Shown: positions 26,758 to 32,922 of the stretch, piece by piece | Layout of the letters: every line of letters starts with the position of its first letter | Numbering within the stretch: position 1 is the first letter of the stretch | Assembly (NCBI GenBank): GCA_016840065.1 | Contig: JAEOTB010000010.1 | Coordinates: forward strand, 1 to 64,000 | Length of the DNA stretch: 64,000 nt | Origin: Candidatus Hermodarchaeota archaeon | GTDB lineage: Archaea; Asgardarchaeota; Hermodarchaeia; Hermodarchaeales; Hermodarchaeaceae | Direction of reading: 5' to 3' | The notes under the pieces: generated by a model | What the model was told of the DNA's origin: nothing | The model's database searches: none | Seen by the model: the letters and a program-made list of their open reading frames with translations, nothing else | Program-made: the position numbers and the translations under genes

Positions 26758-27789
26758 ATGGCTTTACCACCAACTTTAATCATTGACTTAGGCAGCGGCT
26801 ATTTGAAGTATGGTTATGTTGATCAGTCTTCACCGAGAGTTCTGCCTGCATGTTATGCAGCGCCTGAGGGTGAGGCGGAATCCTCCTCTTTACTCACCTT
26901 TGATCCTGGAAGGGAGGGGTGGGTCTTCCCTTTGGAAAATGGAATTGTAACCGACTGCAACAAAATCGCCCCACTCCTTGAACTTGTTTTTGATGAGATT
27001 GGAATGAAAGCGTCTCAGTTCGGTAAAACCGATTTCGAACTACTGGTCTTCGCCTCATGTGACGCTAAAAGGGTCGATGGAATTTGCAATGAACTTGAAG
27101 AAATTCTAGCATTTCGCAATGTGACCGCCTCACTGCAGCAAGTAACAACACTGATGGATCTCGACCGAGCTACAGGAATCATAGTTGACATCGGCTACTC
27201 AGTTTCCATCGTAGCACCAATCTTTCAAGGCTTTCTGCTCCATGATAGGGTTATGACCTCTGCAACTGGCTCCTTTTTTGTATCTGCTGTTCTCTCTCAT
27301 CTGCTTCTGTTAATGGCTGAAGCCGAGCCTAAACCGGAAGCGATACTCTACGAAAAACTCTCCAAGAACTTAGACGCGATAGAGTTCATTAAGAGAAATT
27401 TGTGTCGAGTTGCTATTAAACCAGCAGAAAGAGAGACAATATCAAGCGGGATAAAATACCAGCAGGAAGGGTTAGATCTACCACTGGGTAAAATGGTATG
27501 GATGGCTCCTGAAGTCTTGTTTGACCCAGGTCTAATCGATATACGCGACATTGGAATCAGTAATTTGGTTTCTGAGGTCCTGCAGCGAGTAGATTTGTCA
27601 ATGAGACCTGAATTAGCGCAGAACGTATTTTTAACTGGTGGAGGCTCGATTTTTCCTGGTCTTGGAGAGCGGTTTCATGCAGAATTAAGAGGGAAGTTTC
27701 CGAATCTTCCGATGAATGTCCATGTCCTCGATGACCCATTTGAACGCGTCTGGTCTAGTGCAGTTCATTTGGCGCGAATGAGGATTTAA
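26758..27789 (+). CDS. Divergent actin-family protein (Asgard actin-related protein)
   Basis: IIDLGSGYLKYG, FPLENGIVTD, TGIIVDIGYSVSIVAPIFQG, APEVLFDP, RPELAQNVFLTGGGSIFPGLGERFHAEL. Confidence 0.9.
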   Translation: MALPPTLIIDLGSGYLKYGYVDQSSPRVLPACYAAPEGEAESSSLLTFDPGREGWVFPLENGIVTDCNKIAPLLELVFDEIGMKASQFGKTDFELLVFASCDAKRVDGICNELEEILAFRNVTASLQQVTTLMDLDRATGIIVDIGYSVSIVAPIFQGFLLHDRVMTSATGSFFVSAVLSHLLLLMAEAEPKPEAILYEKLSKNLDAIEFIKRNLCRVAIKPAERETISSGIKYQQEGLDLPLGKMVWMAPEVLFDPGLIDIRDIGISNLVSEVLQRVDLSMRPELAQNVFLTGGGSIFPGLGERFHAELRGKFPNLPMNVHVLDDPFERVWSSAVHLARMRI

Positions 27790-27800
27790 TAAACAACACA

Positions 27801-27957
27801 AGGGTCTCTGAGCCGCTGGCTCAACACAGAACCAGGCAGGTTCATTTGAGCTCTATCTAGACCCTAAACGCCTGGCTGAGGCGGGAGGTCGCAACCCCGG
27901 CTGGGGTGGTGCCCGCCTATGATGCAGGAACCAAACACCAACCTTGGTCCAGCGTCA
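27801..27957 (+). ncRNA. Candidate structured RNA (multi-stem, pseudoknot-capable), family unknown
   Basis: At least six complementary stems in a GC-rich island within an AT-rich intergenic region; G-U pairs mostly favour the + strand. Confidence 0.55.
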
Positions 27958-28068
27958 GGATTGGATAAGATTTGGACAACGGTATAGATTAGCAACTGTT
28001 TTCAGGCAGAAAAAACTATTATATTGTGTGTTTGCGTTCTGTAATTATTAGTTCTTGGGGAATATAGC

Positions 28069-28467
28069 GTGTCAGTTGCTGCCAGCGTAAAAGAGATTGT
28101 TGAAAAAATTGGGCACCGCCTTGACTCATTATCTGAAGAAATGAAGGAACTCCGTGTGGCTGTGGAGAAGCTAGCTGAAGAATCTGAAAAAAGAATGAAA
28201 AAGGTCCTTGAGCAGGCTAATACGTTGATTCAGTTACTTCAGCAAGAGGTTTCAACCTTCGAAGAACAACGTCATCTACTAGAGTCACAAATCACAGCTG
28301 AACTGGATAGAGTGAAAAGAATAACTCAACTTAGTGACCTAGAAGATGCAGTCCACACCGTTTCAGAAATCGTAGATGAATTTGTAAACAACATTGACCT
28401 GGATAAAGTGCTTGAGGCTGTCCAGCAGCTTGAAGCAAAGCATGGTACTGATTCAGAAGGCGGGTGA
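28069..28467 (+). CDS. Coiled-coil hypothetical protein
   Basis: 132 aa with continuous heptad pattern; GTGA overlap with the next gene. Confidence 0.7.
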   Translation: MSVAASVKEIVEKIGHRLDSLSEEMKELRVAVEKLAEESEKRMKKVLEQANTLIQLLQQEVSTFEEQRHLLESQITAELDRVKRITQLSDLEDAVHTVSEIVDEFVNNIDLDKVLEAVQQLEAKHGTDSEGG

Positions 28468-28937
28468 GTATGTTGACAGAGAAGCCAAAACCCGATAAAT
28501 CCGCATCCTCTCAGCAATCAGACGATTCCACGCTGATTCCCTTTCTCACTCAGGCTTTTTCTAATCTTTTCAGCCGAGTTACTGCGGTATCTGACGAGCT
28601 AGCAAAATTGAAGGCAACAGTTGGTAAGATTGACGAGTTGAACAAGTCAGCCTTAGCAAGCGTGGTGCCAAAATTCGAGGAGATCCTACTGAATCTCCAG
28701 AAGCAGCGAAGAAGCAGCGTGACTCATCTTTCTCGGCTTGCTGAAACAATTACTCAGGAGTTTGAAGCACTTAATGAAACCCGCTCCGCAAGCGTGGACC
28801 AAAGAGTTCTATCACTTCTTGCGAAGACACTCCACGCGACCCAACAAGCCCTCTATTGCCTTCGCTTAGAAGGCTTCATCAGGAGAATCATGGAACTTAA
28901 GCAGGAATTGAAACCTGCTAAAGAGAAGCCCAAATAG
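28464..28937 (+). CDS. Coiled-coil hypothetical protein
   Basis: 157-aa helical ORF translationally coupled to the upstream gene. Confidence 0.7.
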   Translation: MSMLTEKPKPDKSASSQQSDDSTLIPFLTQAFSNLFSRVTAVSDELAKLKATVGKIDELNKSALASVVPKFEEILLNLQKQRRSSVTHLSRLAETITQEFEALNETRSASVDQRVLSLLAKTLHATQQALYCLRLEGFIRRIMELKQELKPAKEKPK

Positions 28938-28945
28938 TGACGAGT

Positions 28946-29488
28946 TCATTCTAGGAGGCTTCCTGGTTCTTCTTTCAGACCGTACTTTCGCTTCATTTTT
29001 TCTCGCCAGTCCCCTCCAACTTGATCCCCTGTGACTACCTCAGGCTCACCTGTTGTCTCCTCTGCTGCGGGTGCTTCCTCAGATTCGCTGCCTGTAGATG
29101 TGCTAGCTTTAGATTTTGCTGCACGGGCTGCAGGCGCTCCGGTCGAGGATAGGCGTCTTGGTGCAACGACAACCCTTGAAGGTGCTGCTGTCGCCGCGAC
29201 GGGTGCGGTACTACGCTCTAGCTGCGTCAGCATCTCAGTTATCGTAAACATTGATACCCGCTGATCGATTTGAGTGATAGCACGGGATAGCCGCTGGGTC
29301 ATTTCTTGTAATGCTTTAGGGCTTGACTCAGATTTGCTCTGGCTAAGTCTTTTTACTTGTTTTGTGAGGTCAGCGATCTGAATTGTTAGCTTCTCTTCCA
29401 GTTCCGTCATCTTGGCTAGAGTTTGTTTCAGGATATCTGTAAGTTGCCGAAAGGCCTCGGCGATATCTTGTTGTTGTGGTTGCGACAT
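28946..29488 (-). CDS. Coiled-coil protein with low-complexity Ala/Ser/acidic tail
   Basis: Start MSQPQQQ at 29488; heptad N-half, disordered C-half ending DWREKMKRKYGL. Confidence 0.7.
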   Translation of the reverse strand: MSQPQQQDIAEAFRQLTDILKQTLAKMTELEEKLTIQIADLTKQVKRLSQSKSESSPKALQEMTQRLSRAITQIDQRVSMFTITEMLTQLERSTAPVAATAAPSRVVVAPRRLSSTGAPAARAAKSKASTSTGSESEEAPAAEETTGEPEVVTGDQVGGDWREKMKRKYGLKEEPGSLLE

Positions 29489-29560
29489 TACTCTCAATGT
29501 AATGTGTCTAGACGAAGACTTATCAAGATTACGATATCCGTGCAAGGAAAGGTTTTTCCA

Positions 29561-30586
29561 ATGGATTTCTCAGCTAATATTTCTTCTGAAAAGGCGCGAA
29601 GGATAGGGCTCCATTTTAGAAAACTCAAACCAGAAGCTGAAGATTTCTTAGATGATCGATTCTTCCCTAGCGCCGAGGAGGATTCAGAAAATGTGGCGCG
29701 GTTTTTCTTCTTCATCACTGGAATCGATCACCGCACCAGTCCGCCAGGGAAAAGCTTTGAAGGGTTCGTAGATGACGAATATTTCCAAGGTGCTGACCTG
29801 CTATGGCATCTTGCATTAAGGAAGTACCGCGAAAACCCGGGCTTCTTTGAACCACTACAAATGGCTCGAATTACTACAAAGGATGTTGAGAATTGGTTAA
29901 CCGTATATCAACCTGTTCGGGTCACAATACGTAATCCAAGCCAGCGTGCTGATCTGCTTAGTGATTGTGGACAGAAACTAGCAAGCCTCTATGGTGGTTC
30001 AGTGCTCACTCTTCTTAATCAAACCAAAAATAGAATATCAGCGCCCTCAAGTAATGTACTTGGGCTTCTAGACCGCCTCGCTGGGTTCAAGGCTTATGAG
30101 GATCCCGTCCGGAAGAAGAGTTTTCTTCTACTCAAGTTCATCATACGTCGGCGGCTCTGGACTCCTGAGGATCCAGAGAATCTCCGTATTCCTGTTGACA
30201 ACCACTTGATTCGGATAGCTTTACGCACAGGTATAGTCAAAGTTTCTTATGGTTTTGAAGAGACATTACGTGATGGACACGCAATAACAGCTGCCAATGA
30301 TGTGGTTCTACGCCAAGTTGTATCTGATGCATTTTCAGAGGTAGCCCATTATGCGAAACAACCAGTTCTTGAGCTAGACGATTTCCTATGGCATTTTGGT
30401 AGGCTCTGCTGCACTGCAGCTTCGCCGGTATGCAATCAAGGTTGTTCAACTCGTTGTTTTGTCGCAACTGAATTACTTCCTTCTTCTTGTGAACTTCAAT
30501 GTCCTCTAGCTGAAGCGTGTACTGCGAATACTGAAATCTTATACCGCGAGATAAAGGAGCCAAAACTCGATACTTGGTACTACTAG
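29561..30586 (+). CDS. HhH-GPD/DNA-glycosylase-fold protein with C-terminal Cys cluster (possibly queuosine-salvage-related)
   Basis: DPVRKKSFL, IPVDNHLIRIALRTG, LWHFGRLCC...C...C...CPL...C; ATG 29561 avoids overlap with the divergent gene. Confidence 0.65.
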   Translation: MDFSANISSEKARRIGLHFRKLKPEAEDFLDDRFFPSAEEDSENVARFFFFITGIDHRTSPPGKSFEGFVDDEYFQGADLLWHLALRKYRENPGFFEPLQMARITTKDVENWLTVYQPVRVTIRNPSQRADLLSDCGQKLASLYGGSVLTLLNQTKNRISAPSSNVLGLLDRLAGFKAYEDPVRKKSFLLLKFIIRRRLWTPEDPENLRIPVDNHLIRIALRTGIVKVSYGFEETLRDGHAITAANDVVLRQVVSDAFSEVAHYAKQPVLELDDFLWHFGRLCCTAASPVCNQGCSTRCFVATELLPSSCELQCPLAEACTANTEILYREIKEPKLDTWYY

Positions 30587-32349
30587 CTACCAGAAGGGGG
30601 AGTGTCGGATTTATGTCTGTAAATGTATTTTCCGATAAACCGTTCCTGGCTTTTCAAGATTGGAGGAGACCAAGAGACTATAATGCCATTTTCTGCTTCT
30701 CTGATATTTGGTTCTGGAATTTCCTCGGGAACTGCAACATATTCGAAACTCGGTGGAATGAGATCCCAAAGCTTGGGACGAGCGAGGCTAGACTCGCTCA
30801 TATTGATAAATGTCAGAGTAACAGTTAATTCGCCCTTATTGGGGCCTGGTGATACAGTACGAGTTTTATGAAGTTTACGAAACGCTTTTTCTACTTTTAA
30901 TGTCGGCGCAGTCAGTGCCAACAAAGTAGCACTAGCTGCAGGACCTGGGGGGAAGGTATTCGCCTCTACCGTCAGGGGAAGGATGTGTTCCTGTTCAGGT
31001 TCTGGTGTTCGAGCAATCGTTGTATACTTCACTATCATCTGCTCTCCAGGCTCGACAGCGACTTGTCTTTCAAACAAGTCAGTAACGTGGATAGTAACGA
31101 CACGCTCTGTGGGTGAATCTCTCTTCTTAGGGCGAACAGTGACTTTGATTTTCTGTGTAATCGGCTTCTCTTCTATCCAGACTTGAACCTGGACCTTATC
31201 TGGTGCATCAAAGCCAGCAGGAATCGTATCAAAGAAGGTAACCTCGTTAAAGTTAGAGGTTCCGATGTTCTTTGCTTCAAGTGAAATAGCTACTGGGCTA
31301 GGCTCCCAAGCAGGCAATTCCGAAGGCCTAACGGTTTTATTACATTCTATCCGTAAAACTGGGACACTGGCTTCTTCTTTCTCAACTGTCCCTACTAAAC
31401 TCTGAACGATGGATGCCTCTACTCGATAGAAGGCGACAATATCAAATTCGGGGTTCTCTTCCTTTGTATCAAACTCGTAACCCCAAAACTCTCCAGGTTC
31501 TAGCTTGTGATCCAGTGTTCCTTCAAAGAGTACCCTGCTGTCTGGGGCAGTCATGACCACTTGTATTCGTTCAATCCGGATAGGAAAATCACTAGTGTTC
31601 TTGAGTGTAGCATTGCAGCGCCAAATTCCTCGCCTAGTTGAATCCTCTGTTTTCTCAATGTTTACCTCACACTCTGTAACTCCTCGCATTATTGGCATCA
31701 GTCGACTGCGACTTAGATTAGGAATATTGTAGGTAACATTGAGTTTTCCTGTTTGGACTGGTGTCGAGTCATCAGCGGTAAGGGTGGCCCGAACCAGCAG
31801 AATGGCTACACGCTCAGGTTCCAATTCCTTGATTGTCCATACGACCTTTCCAGCTTGTTGATCGTACTCCATCATTCCAATAGGAATGTTCTGTGGTTCA
31901 ACTCCCTTGAAAGCAGGGGGAATTGTTTTGGTTACCACGATATCCGAGATTTTCCCACCTGAACGGTTTCGAAGGGTGATGGTGAACTCGACAGGCATTG
32001 AATGCCCAAACACAAACGCTTTGTTTATCCCAGATCGCTCATAACATGTGTCAACAACCTCGGACACGGAAAGCATCGGCACATCCAAATCCTTAATGAT
32101 GAATTCCTTTTCCCATTCTCCGAGTGGATCAAGTTGACCGATTTGAAATGAGTCAGTTCCAAGAGTGGACCTATTCGGGCTATTAGGTTCCATTTCAGCA
32201 TCCCAAATTGATACCCGTCGCGACATATTGCGAACTGTCACTCTCCCTCGTGGATCAAATCTAGAAATCGAATTGTCAGCATTTAAGACAGTATGTTCAA
32301 ATTCTCTTATCTTAATAGTAAGCCCAATCGGTTCGTCCGCCACGCCCAA
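30583..32349 (-). CDS. Cytoplasmic beta-sandwich repeat protein with mu-homology-domain-like N-terminal half
   Basis: No signal peptide or TM; repeated N-x(10)-(D/K)-x-IP-x-x-F units; segments resemble the adaptin mu/delta-COP C-terminal domain. Confidence 0.65.
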   Translation of the reverse strand: [588 protein letters not shown]

Positions 32350-32427: not shown

Positions 32428-32922
32428 TTAAAAATGAAGGAGTGCGAGGTTGAAGGCGTTGTCTTGTAGTCTTCTCAGAGTCCCTGAGGCTTTTAGGAGG
32501 GTTAGCTCAGCCGTAGGATACACTAAACACCCCTCTAGAAGGTGTCCCCCTTGGGTGTTTCTCTGATAGCCTTTCAAGACGATGTGACCATGAACCACTA
32601 CCTCTTCTTCACGTTGGGCAATATTACCTACACAAGAGAGTATTTCTAAGGCGCGTACATCACCGAAACCGGGTTTGAATTTAACTAAGCGGTAAGTTCG
32701 CTTTGCAGGGTCATAGAACCCAACCTTTGCGGATTCAAGAGCGCCAATCAGGTTAAACATGCCTGCAGTTACGTTATATTCTTCTGCTAATGCTTTGATG
32801 CTAAGTAATACATCTTCACCAACATCAAGTCGTGCAACTATCATTTCAGTTATAGGAAAACTAGAGCTTCGCAGATTAATCACCTGCACCAGGATTAGAA
32901 TCAGATTTAGAAGAGAGCCCAA
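32428..32922 (-). CDS. PPC/DUF296 domain protein
   Basis: ARLDVGEDV, IGAL, EILSCVGNI, HGHIVL, GGHL, TAE; true start likely downstream of 32922. Confidence 0.88.
   Translation of the reverse strand: MGSLLNLILILVQVINLRSSSFPITEMIVARLDVGEDVLLSIKALAEEYNVTAGMFNLIGALESAKVGFYDPAKRTYRLVKFKPGFGDVRALEILSCVGNIAQREEEVVVHGHIVLKGYQRNTQGGHLLEGCLVYPTAELTLLKASGTLRRLQDNAFNLALLHF

Follow-up and report, generated by a model that had tools for sequence, protein, structure and literature searches.

The mu homology domain (MHD) is a two-subdomain beta platform of the AP mu subunits, delta-COP and the muniscins (FCHo, SGIP1, Syp1), and it binds short peptide motifs of cargo or accessory proteins. Mu and delta-COP also carry a longin domain, which holds them in the coat tetramers. 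The muniscin and delta-COP MHDs are preceded on their N-terminal side by an F-BAR, APA or longin region. A second group relevant here is defined by the DUF11 domain, and its typical members are long exported repeat arrays.

Asgard homologues of the mu domain have already been reported, as the first-pass annotation of the present locus noted. Eme et al. 2023 (Nature; PMC10307638) list the family described here in Supplementary Table 3, under the Adap_comp_sub (PF00928) candidates. In the passages of that report concerned with the family, the mu C-terminal domain is present, the other adaptor domains are not fused to it, and the distribution is termed sparse; they provide the Pfam label and the sequences only, with no fold, layout or DUF11 relation. 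In N-terminus and length, the Hermodarchaeia entries agree with homologues P0013 and P0019 (52-53% identity to our protein), and those from Thor, Loki, Hel and Jord belong to more distant subfamilies also recovered in this work. Judged by eye from their sequences, at least some rows of the same table appear unrelated, for example helical Gerd/Heimdall and signal-peptide-bearing Loki entries. Since the family is already in this table, the gene adds no new family. The novelty is smaller than the first-pass annotation assumed, as close Hermodarchaeia relatives had been tabulated and their unfused state had been stated. In the passages covered of other recent work, adaptor proteins are touched on only in passing (Koestlbacher et al. 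2026, PMC12962969; PMC13734099) and the family is not mentioned (Makarova et al. 2024, PMC10936438). Our literature search found no paper pairing Asgard with the mu homology domain or with Adap_comp_sub by name. What is new is the whole-domain fold support, the domain layout, the internal-repeat evidence for a DUF11-type subdomain B, and the recovery of a match in 225 of the 301 genomes sampled from the phylum.

Gene and domain layout

The gene lies in a window of 64,000 nucleotides (contig JAEOTB010000010.1) from a Hermodarchaeota-type Asgard archaeon and is present as a single copy in the source genome. Three DNA runs from one study contain the source stretch, and no RNA runs carrying it are listed. 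The ORF and its parts are given in Table 1. Alignment of N-termini places the start site of the 588-aa protein at the same position as in its orthologues, whose N-termini lead directly to the first conserved strand without a hydrophobic leader. A hydropathy scan found neither a signal peptide nor a membrane segment in the protein (highest 19-residue Kyte-Doolittle mean, 1.3), in agreement with the cytoplasmic location first proposed from the absence of a signal peptide. The AF2 model of the full protein has a pLDDT of 90.4 and a pTM of 0.72.

Table 1. Coordinates of the ORF and its predicted domains within the window
Feature	Coordinates	Strand	Description or basis
Whole ORF	30583..32349	minus	588 codons plus stop, TTG start; soluble all-beta protein
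Residues 7-115, first part of predicted MHD subdomain A, six main strands	32005..32331	minus	Structural alignment, model residue 7 onward to mu2 from residue 170
Residues 116-218, predicted MHD subdomain B, DUF11-type beta-sandwich by sequence, with motifs 2 and 3	31696..32004	minus	Pfam, HMMER, hhalign
Residues 219-326, return strands 220-235, five-strand extension 243-312, closing strand 313-324	31372..31695	minus	Model strand list
Residues 329-490, ~160-residue beta-sandwich, DUF11-related by profile	30880..31365	minus	Resembles Gram-positive pilin domains and cohesins
Residues 491-584, C-terminal DUF11-type Ig-like domain	30598..30879	minus	hhalign, Pfam on homologues, strands

Several positions are strongly conserved in the family alignment, both in subdomain A (E16 in 61/67 sequences, G35 in 64/67, N41 in 67/67 and W49 in 61/67) and in the five-strand extension (W243 in 64/67, N251 in 60/67 and S253 in 59/67), which eukaryotic MHDs lack. 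The structural alignments stop at model residue 325-328, corresponding to the last residue of each MHD. Residues 241-326 resemble residues 7-115 (internal hhalign, probability 68, E 4.7e-5). When residues 236-588 were folded alone, strand 313-324 was lost and pLDDT fell below 50 at 314-320, which fits a strand returning to the N-terminal sheet. A second MHD-like module at 241-468 was considered and is not supported: the model of 236-588 matched pilin and cohesin domains, with no MHD among the best 50 matches listed.

The strands of the C-terminal domain span 493-579 with pLDDT about 90. Residues 469-584 align with subdomain B (hhalign probability 90.6, E 1.3e-6), and the equivalent domain of Thorarchaeota homologues scores 52-75 bits with Pfam DUF11. 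The extra beta-sandwich units proposed beyond the MHD are thus present in the model. Their number, put at about three Ig-like units, is roughly right, although the model distributes them as the extension within the MHD-like module, the ~160-residue sandwich and the DUF11-type domain.

Relation to the mu homology domain

A Foldseek search of the model against the PDB returned many AP mu C-terminal domains, with E-values of 1e-10 to 1e-9 and a target-normalised TM-score of about 0.6, at 9-14% identity. In a structure search of 48,161 chains, ranks 1-10 were all MHDs aligned over the whole domain, exceeding the best non-MHD match on that region by about 5.7 Z units and about 85 aligned residues. 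In this comparison of a predicted structure, the alignment to mu2 leaves out about 97 of the 320 module residues. The model has the two-subdomain all-beta fold, with B inserted in A, and superposes on the whole MHD. Thus, the MHD-like fold proposed in the first-pass annotation is supported by the model, which does not show the outcome that would have contradicted it, independent Ig domains with no such topology. Residues 236-588, which contain the same repeat types, served as an internal control and behaved differently, as noted above.

Support at the sequence level is weaker. Adap_comp_sub matches residues 117-217 of the protein over profile positions 124-228 of 259 (E 2.4e-5), but the 24.3 bits fall below the gathering cut-off of 31.6 bits and cover subdomain B only. 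In a family scan, 33/34 members match PF00928 at E<=0.01. The cut-off is passed by 4 of the 10 members examined (P0009, P0011, P0013 and P0022) and likewise by P0115 and P0176. Homologue P0082, which aligns with the source protein over its full length (BLASTP E 1e-38), reaches 40.9 bits, its match spanning positions 12-236 of the 259 in the profile and hence both subdomains. The best PDB matches of family profiles A1 and A4 are AP mu chains (E 4.8e-4 and 6.3e-4), and mu subunits make up most of the 31 matches of A4. Profile A3, built from the N-terminal module of Hermod and Thor sequences and weighted toward Thor, gave a weaker E of only 0.11. A single-sequence phmmer search of the PDB found no mu chain, only chance-level matches such as alkylmercury lyase (E 0.05). 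The family-wide PF00928 matches, together with the strong structural match, indicate more than a chance resemblance to mu.

The first-pass annotation had pointed to three AP-mu-like segments in the right order, at residues 13-40 (in the first part of subdomain A), 158-178 and 203-217. In the proposed register, the second and third are covered by the HMMER alignments between the family profile and the mu chains of AP-3 and AP-1, and they also fall within the Pfam match. The first segment shows that register against AP-1 mu1 in one sub-alignment only, which by itself is insignificant (score -2.0). Taken together, fold and sequence make it very probable that the N-terminal ~320 residues are an MHD by fold and homology, and we infer common descent with the eukaryotic MHDs.

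The YxxPhi pocket of mu2, reportedly described by Owen and Evans in 1998, is said to be formed by Asp, Phe, Lys, Trp and Arg residues. Inspection of this pocket could place only the tyrosine-binding Asp; a collinear HMMER sub-alignment, individually insignificant, sets it opposite Lys13. The position is not conserved in the family (D 11, E 10, T 8, R 7, N 7 and K 6 of 67). The ligand is probably not a canonical YxxPhi signal.

Subdomain B and the DUF11 repeats

DUF11 (PF01345) scores 38.6 bits at residues 120-198, above its gathering cut-off of 24.6 bits, so that the source protein is a DUF11 protein by this measure; it outscores Adap_comp_sub there, and DUF11 matches 34/34 members in the family scan. 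Internal hhalign comparisons link residues 116-218, 330-468 and 469-584 at probabilities of 86-91, with subdomain B matching the two C-terminal units at 85.8 and 90.6. By sequence, subdomain B is a DUF11-type unit. The language-model neighbours of residues 1-330 are likewise archaeal DUF11 clusters (0.94-0.96), the first eukaryotic Adap_comp_sub cluster appearing at rank 29 (0.79). The generic protein P0047 (3026 aa, 24 DUF11 repeats) reaches 289.9 bits against positions 128-208 of PF00928, so the PF00928 match on the subdomain-B part of the profile (~124-228) is non-specific. A direct link from DUF11 to mu was sought with P0047 as phmmer query against the PDB and rejected, as no mu chain was retrieved.

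One family member is annotated in one source as an "uncharacterized repeat protein (TIGR01451 family)", and the likeness to DUF11/TIGR01451 proteins lies in DUF11 matches above the cut-off, which fall on subdomain B and, in homologues, on the C-terminal domain. Compared with typical DUF11 proteins, the Asgard protein is short and has no signal peptide. Its first DUF11 unit sits as an insertion within another sandwich, which gives the MHD arrangement. The suggested connection of DUF11 repeats with vesicle-coat cargo adaptors is supported for the DUF11 relation by Pfam and hhalign, while its cargo and coat part is a proposal.

A tentative, rather doubtful extension of this relation is that the eukaryotic MHD descends from an archaeal beta-sandwich repeat array, with subdomain B a DUF11-type unit inserted into a second sandwich type, which recurs at 241-326. 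The near-universal Asgard family might then keep the ancestral longer form (MHD, extension and two DUF11-type domains), which eukaryotes might have trimmed and fused to a longin domain (mu, delta-COP) or an F-BAR domain (muniscin), and a stand-alone motif-binding hub might predate the coat complexes. Our literature search found no paper joining DUF11 with mu homology.

Coat partners, rival readings and significance

In contrast to the mu1, mu2, mu3 and mu4 subunits, the Asgard protein has no N-terminal longin domain, and it adds the five-strand extension and two more sandwiches. Unlike in muniscins and delta-COP, its MHD is N-terminal and is followed by sandwiches. The module begins at residue 7, and no longin or Clat_adaptor_s Pfam match was found in the protein or in 52 further family members scanned, confirming the longin-less architecture. 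On this ground we do not class the protein among the orthologues of mu or delta-COP.

The Hermod-type loci are syntenic (NIF3, actin, three coiled-coil genes, AGOG-like, the MHD-like gene, PCC and PolB), and none of these neighbours was found in the Thor loci, where the neighbours are a 363-aa protein of no recognised family and an archaeosine-TGT-like gene (each in 21/21), together with a helicase (19/21). These are housekeeping genes that differ between the two lineages, and gene context was rejected as a functional clue.

The protein could instead be a plain multi-domain array of DUF11/CARDB-type sandwiches, in which the first two pack like an MHD by convergence or from common building blocks, with no tie to coat adaptors and a structural or unspecified role. 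Such an array would account for the higher DUF11 score on the same residues, its occurrence in every member, the P0047 cross-match, the DUF11 language-model clusters and the weak sequence E-values to mu chains (4.8e-4 to 0.11). We nevertheless regard it as unlikely, because MHDs fill the first ten structural ranks over the whole domain, whereas the second half, built of the same repeat types, retrieves none among its best 50 matches listed. Moreover, P0082 passes the PF00928 cut-off over a range that includes subdomain A, which is not DUF11-like, and a search with the single sequence of P0047 retrieves no mu chain from the PDB. Export to the cell surface as an adhesin-type protein, suggested by the DUF11, pilin-like and cohesin-like sandwiches typical of that location, would need an unrecognised export route. 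We consider it very improbable in view of the hydropathy scan, the leaderless orthologue N-termini and the ~590-aa architecture, which is conserved and single copy in most sampled genomes, unlike that of variable adhesins.

A further possibility is that the protein is the medium subunit of a true Asgard AP/COPI-like coat, with HEAT large and longin small subunits encoded elsewhere, sorting membrane cargo into vesicles. An Extended Data legend of Eme et al. 2023 (PMC10307638) gives all five adaptor Pfam domains as present in Asgard archaea, the source genome has HEAT-repeat ORFs with weak Adaptin_N (PF01602) matches, and in two family members, P0169 and P0172, the module is preceded by fused HEAT_2 repeats at the N-terminus. 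Against this, the longin domain is missing, and neither the sigma-like Clat_adaptor_s (PF01217) nor the alpha-appendage (PF02883) has a match in the source genome, which is 83.9% complete. The Adaptin_N matches are below cut-off or also ring in three control genomes, for example Bacillus subtilis. No conserved linkage to trafficking genes was seen, and the tyrosine-pocket Asp position is not conserved. We judge such a coat quite improbable.

We consider it likely, overall, that the protein represents a soluble, cytoplasmic, Asgard-wide family, homologous to the MHD, that serves as a stand-alone interaction hub. The absence of a longin domain makes this mode of action the most likely one; taken by itself, with peptide binding and partners presumed, we give it an even chance. 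The protein would act alone as a cytosolic protein-interaction platform, like the muniscin MHDs. Partner proteins may dock on the edges of its sandwiches through linear motifs or surfaces, and the C-terminal sandwiches may supply added binding or spacing surfaces.

The phylum survey (matches at E<=1e-10; 73/90 genomes in the high-quality subset) indicates that the family is common in the phylum and not sparse. At E<=1e-3, 439 clusters were found among 1.84 billion representatives, and every source name given was an Asgard lineage (10 clusters looked up, 6 without a name). The Pfam label of the family also rests on more than a DUF11 cross-match, since the prediction covers the entire MHD fold and is of high confidence. 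Adaptor and coat-part homologues in Asgard archaea bear on the origin of eukaryotic membrane traffic, and the relation to DUF11 offers a concrete, testable origin for the MHD. With its predicted MHD fold and common occurrence, the family lends itself to work in cultured Asgard archaea on the role that the MHD may have had before AP complexes.

Sequence evidence for a probable mu homology domain

The first-pass annotation had likened three motifs of the MHD-like protein (588 aa) to the C-terminal domain of AP mu and delta-COP, the mu homology domain (MHD). Its observation is confirmed and its reading is supported overall; we consider MHD fold and homology very probable. Motifs 2 and 3 (residues 158–178 and 203–217) keep the AP-mu register when family profiles are compared with AP mu chains, whereas motif 1 (13–40) aligns with mu1 only in a sub-alignment scoring −2.0.

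In Pfam scans, DUF11 matches residues 120–198 at 38.6 bits (cut-off 24.6), and Adap_comp_sub matches residues 117–217 at 24.3 bits (E 2.4e-5; profile 124–228 of 259), under its cut-off of 31.6. A word-indexed search gave 43 relatives, namely a ~581-aa group with 50–82% identity, a ~594-aa Thorarchaeota group with 24–30%, and one Lokiarchaeota protein. In the aligned set, DUF11 was matched by 34/34 members and Adap_comp_sub by 33/34 at E ≤ 0.01. When ten members were scanned individually, four passed the Adap_comp_sub cut-off, and every match lay on profile ~111–228, corresponding to subdomain B (residues 116–218). A match limited to subdomain B cannot alone separate an MHD from a DUF11 repeat, because P0047, which carries 24 DUF11 repeats in 3026 aa and comes from a 94 kb ENA contig, scores 289.9 bits against Adap_comp_sub positions 128–208. 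When annotation is automatic, this giant protein probably gives rise to false Adap_comp_sub assignments. The language-model neighbours of residues 1–330 are also archaeal DUF11 clusters (0.94–0.96), the first eukaryotic Adap_comp_sub cluster appearing at rank 29 with a score of 0.79.

Profile searches of the PDB point to mu subunits. The single sequence retrieved no relevant match there, and P0047 as a single-sequence query found no mu chain. The 34-sequence family profile matched AP-3 mu1 best (E 4.8e-4), and a 67-sequence profile of diverse members (A4) matched 31 chains at E ≤ 1, mostly AP-1, AP-2 and AP-3 mu subunits (best E 6.3e-4). A Thor-weighted N-terminal profile reached E 0.11 at best. 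Additionally, the more distant member P0082, which aligns with the MHD-like protein over its full length (BLASTP E 1e-38), has an Adap_comp_sub match of 40.9 bits that spans profile 12–236 and thus takes in both subdomains.

Predicted fold and internal repeats

The AlphaFold2 model, built on the 34-sequence alignment, is all-beta (mean pLDDT 90.4, pTM 0.72). Foldseek against the PDB returned many AP mu C-terminal domains at E 1e-10 to 1e-9 with a target-normalised TM-score of ~0.6; long multi-Ig proteins were also among the matches, with very high rmsd. About 97 of the 320 residues of 7–326 are unaligned to mu2, the surplus lying C-terminal to subdomain B. Nine strands are modelled within 219–326, where eukaryotic MHDs, going by the mu2 structure, have about three. 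When residues 236–588 were folded separately with 30 sequences (pLDDT 84.2), the five strands at 243–310 were kept and the 313–324 strand was lost, with pLDDT below 50 at 314–320. From these models we infer that strand 313–324 returns to the N-terminal sheet of the module. Structural alignments to MHDs stop at model residue 325–328, on the final MHD residue, in agreement with such a return.

Blocks taken from the family alignment were compared using hhalign. Subdomain B (116–218) paired with 330–468 and 469–584 at probabilities of 85.8 and 90.6, and these two paired with each other at 90.4. The first sandwich (7–115) paired with 241–326 at 68 (E 4.7e-5), and every other pair stayed below 4. 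By these values the protein consists of two kinds of repeat in the order X-D-X-D-D, the first X-D pair forming the predicted MHD arrangement. In its C-terminal DUF11-type domain (positions 520–596, equivalent to residues ~491–584), the A4 profile gives weak gamma-adaptin ear/appendage matches (1gyv_A, E 0.038; 2a7b_A, E 0.27), and Pfam Alpha_adaptinC2 does not match the protein.

Genomic setting and distribution

Features at the MHD-like locus
Feature	Window position	Strand	Remarks
MHD-like gene	30583..32349	-	single open frame, 588 codons, TTG start
PCC-domain gene	32428-32922	-	PF03479, E 1.1e-25; 79 bases upstream of MHD-like gene, same strand
AGOG-like ORF, 387 aa	29423-30586	+	convergent; overlaps stop codon of MHD-like gene
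Actin-family gene, short (343 aa), then three small coiled-coil genes	26758-29545		Pfam Actin E 1.7e-33

The start position is common to the protein and its orthologues in alignment. The N-terminus is polar and the 19-residue hydropathy mean peaks at 1.3; therefore, neither a signal peptide nor a membrane segment was found. The PCC-domain gene, which may share a transcript with the MHD-like gene, adjoins it in 16 Hermod-type loci and in 0 Thor loci. The 387-aa ORF is kept beside it in 17 loci; its AGOG, Q_salvage and DUF2400 matches are all weak, and its C-terminus is Cys-rich. A family-B DNA polymerase gene and the actin-family gene also lie nearby. The actin/coiled-coil block is syntenic in Hermod-type loci (actin in 15/48, two coiled-coil genes in 16/48 each); one of the three coiled-coil genes has a Syntaxin match of 21.2 bits, under the 26.7 cut-off. 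Among public genomes, the nearest loci are those of Hermodarchaeota MAGs (79–82% identity). Genes flanking the MHD-like gene are of housekeeping type, and they are not the same from one lineage to another.

Searching 1.84 billion cluster representatives with an HMM of the N-terminal module gave 439 matches at E ≤ 1e-3, falling to 230 at 1e-10 and to 63 at 1e-30. Most of the 150 representatives listed match profile ~5–325, so the extension (residues 243–312) is part of the module. Ten clusters were looked up, and the four with a source name were all Asgard (Thor, Jord, Borr, Promethearchaeota). Of genomes sampled evenly across the phylum, 225/301 are matched at E ≤ 1e-10 (73/90 high-quality genomes, 58/70 genera). 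The source genome and most sampled genomes carry one copy, with up to four in one family of genomes.

Asgard archaea have been described as encoding a mu subunit C-terminal domain, unfused to other adaptor domains and sparsely distributed, and Supplementary Table 3 of that work has 44 Adap_comp_sub rows (Eme et al. 2023, PMC10307638). Within its rows 2–41, Hermodarchaeia entries share N-terminus and length with our related proteins P0013 and P0019, and Thor, Loki, Hel and Jord family members are also present; the family is therefore already in print (PMC10307638). Judged by eye from the sequences printed there, some candidates (rows 3–5, 27, 32 and 41) look unrelated to the family, among them Gerd/Heimdall proteins that are helical, Loki proteins whose N-terminus is hydrophobic and a Thor protein of 222 aa. 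No description of the fold, the layout or the DUF11 relation was found in the literature searched, which lay outside subscription journals and the Supplementary Information text of Eme et al. 2023.

Possible mode of action

No tie between the MHD-like gene and a coat was found. Clat_adaptor_s and the alpha-appendage have no match in the source genome (83.9% complete), and its Adaptin_N matches are weak HEAT matches, as in three control genomes. A longin domain is absent from all 52 further members scanned with Pfam. Among these, two 739-aa proteins (P0169, P0172) have N-terminal HEAT_2 repeats (55–57 bits) fused to the module, and one member has TPR. HEAT repeats form the adaptin trunk, yet they are frequent in prokaryotes too. 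One member, P0152 (1322 aa), combines the MHD-like module (64–393), a second Adap_comp_sub-like stretch (568–657) and a NACHT NTPase domain (1008–1123); P0193, in the same cluster, is named Candidatus Borrarchaeum sp. Given this combination, the module may also be used by a STAND-type protein for sensing or binding.

Lys13 is collinear, in the sub-alignment scoring −2.0, with the mu Asp that binds the tyrosine hydroxyl. This column is variable in the 67-sequence family (D 11, E 10, T 8, R 7, N 7, K 6), in contrast to E16 (61/67), G35 (64/67), N41 (67/67) and W49 (61/67) and, in the extension, W243 (64/67), N251 (60/67) and S253 (59/67). The putative ligand is probably other than YxxPhi. This conservation pattern, the lineage-specific neighbours and the missing coat tie lead us to favor, with about even confidence, a mode of action in which the MHD-like protein would be a stand-alone cytosolic interaction platform, working as muniscin MHDs do.
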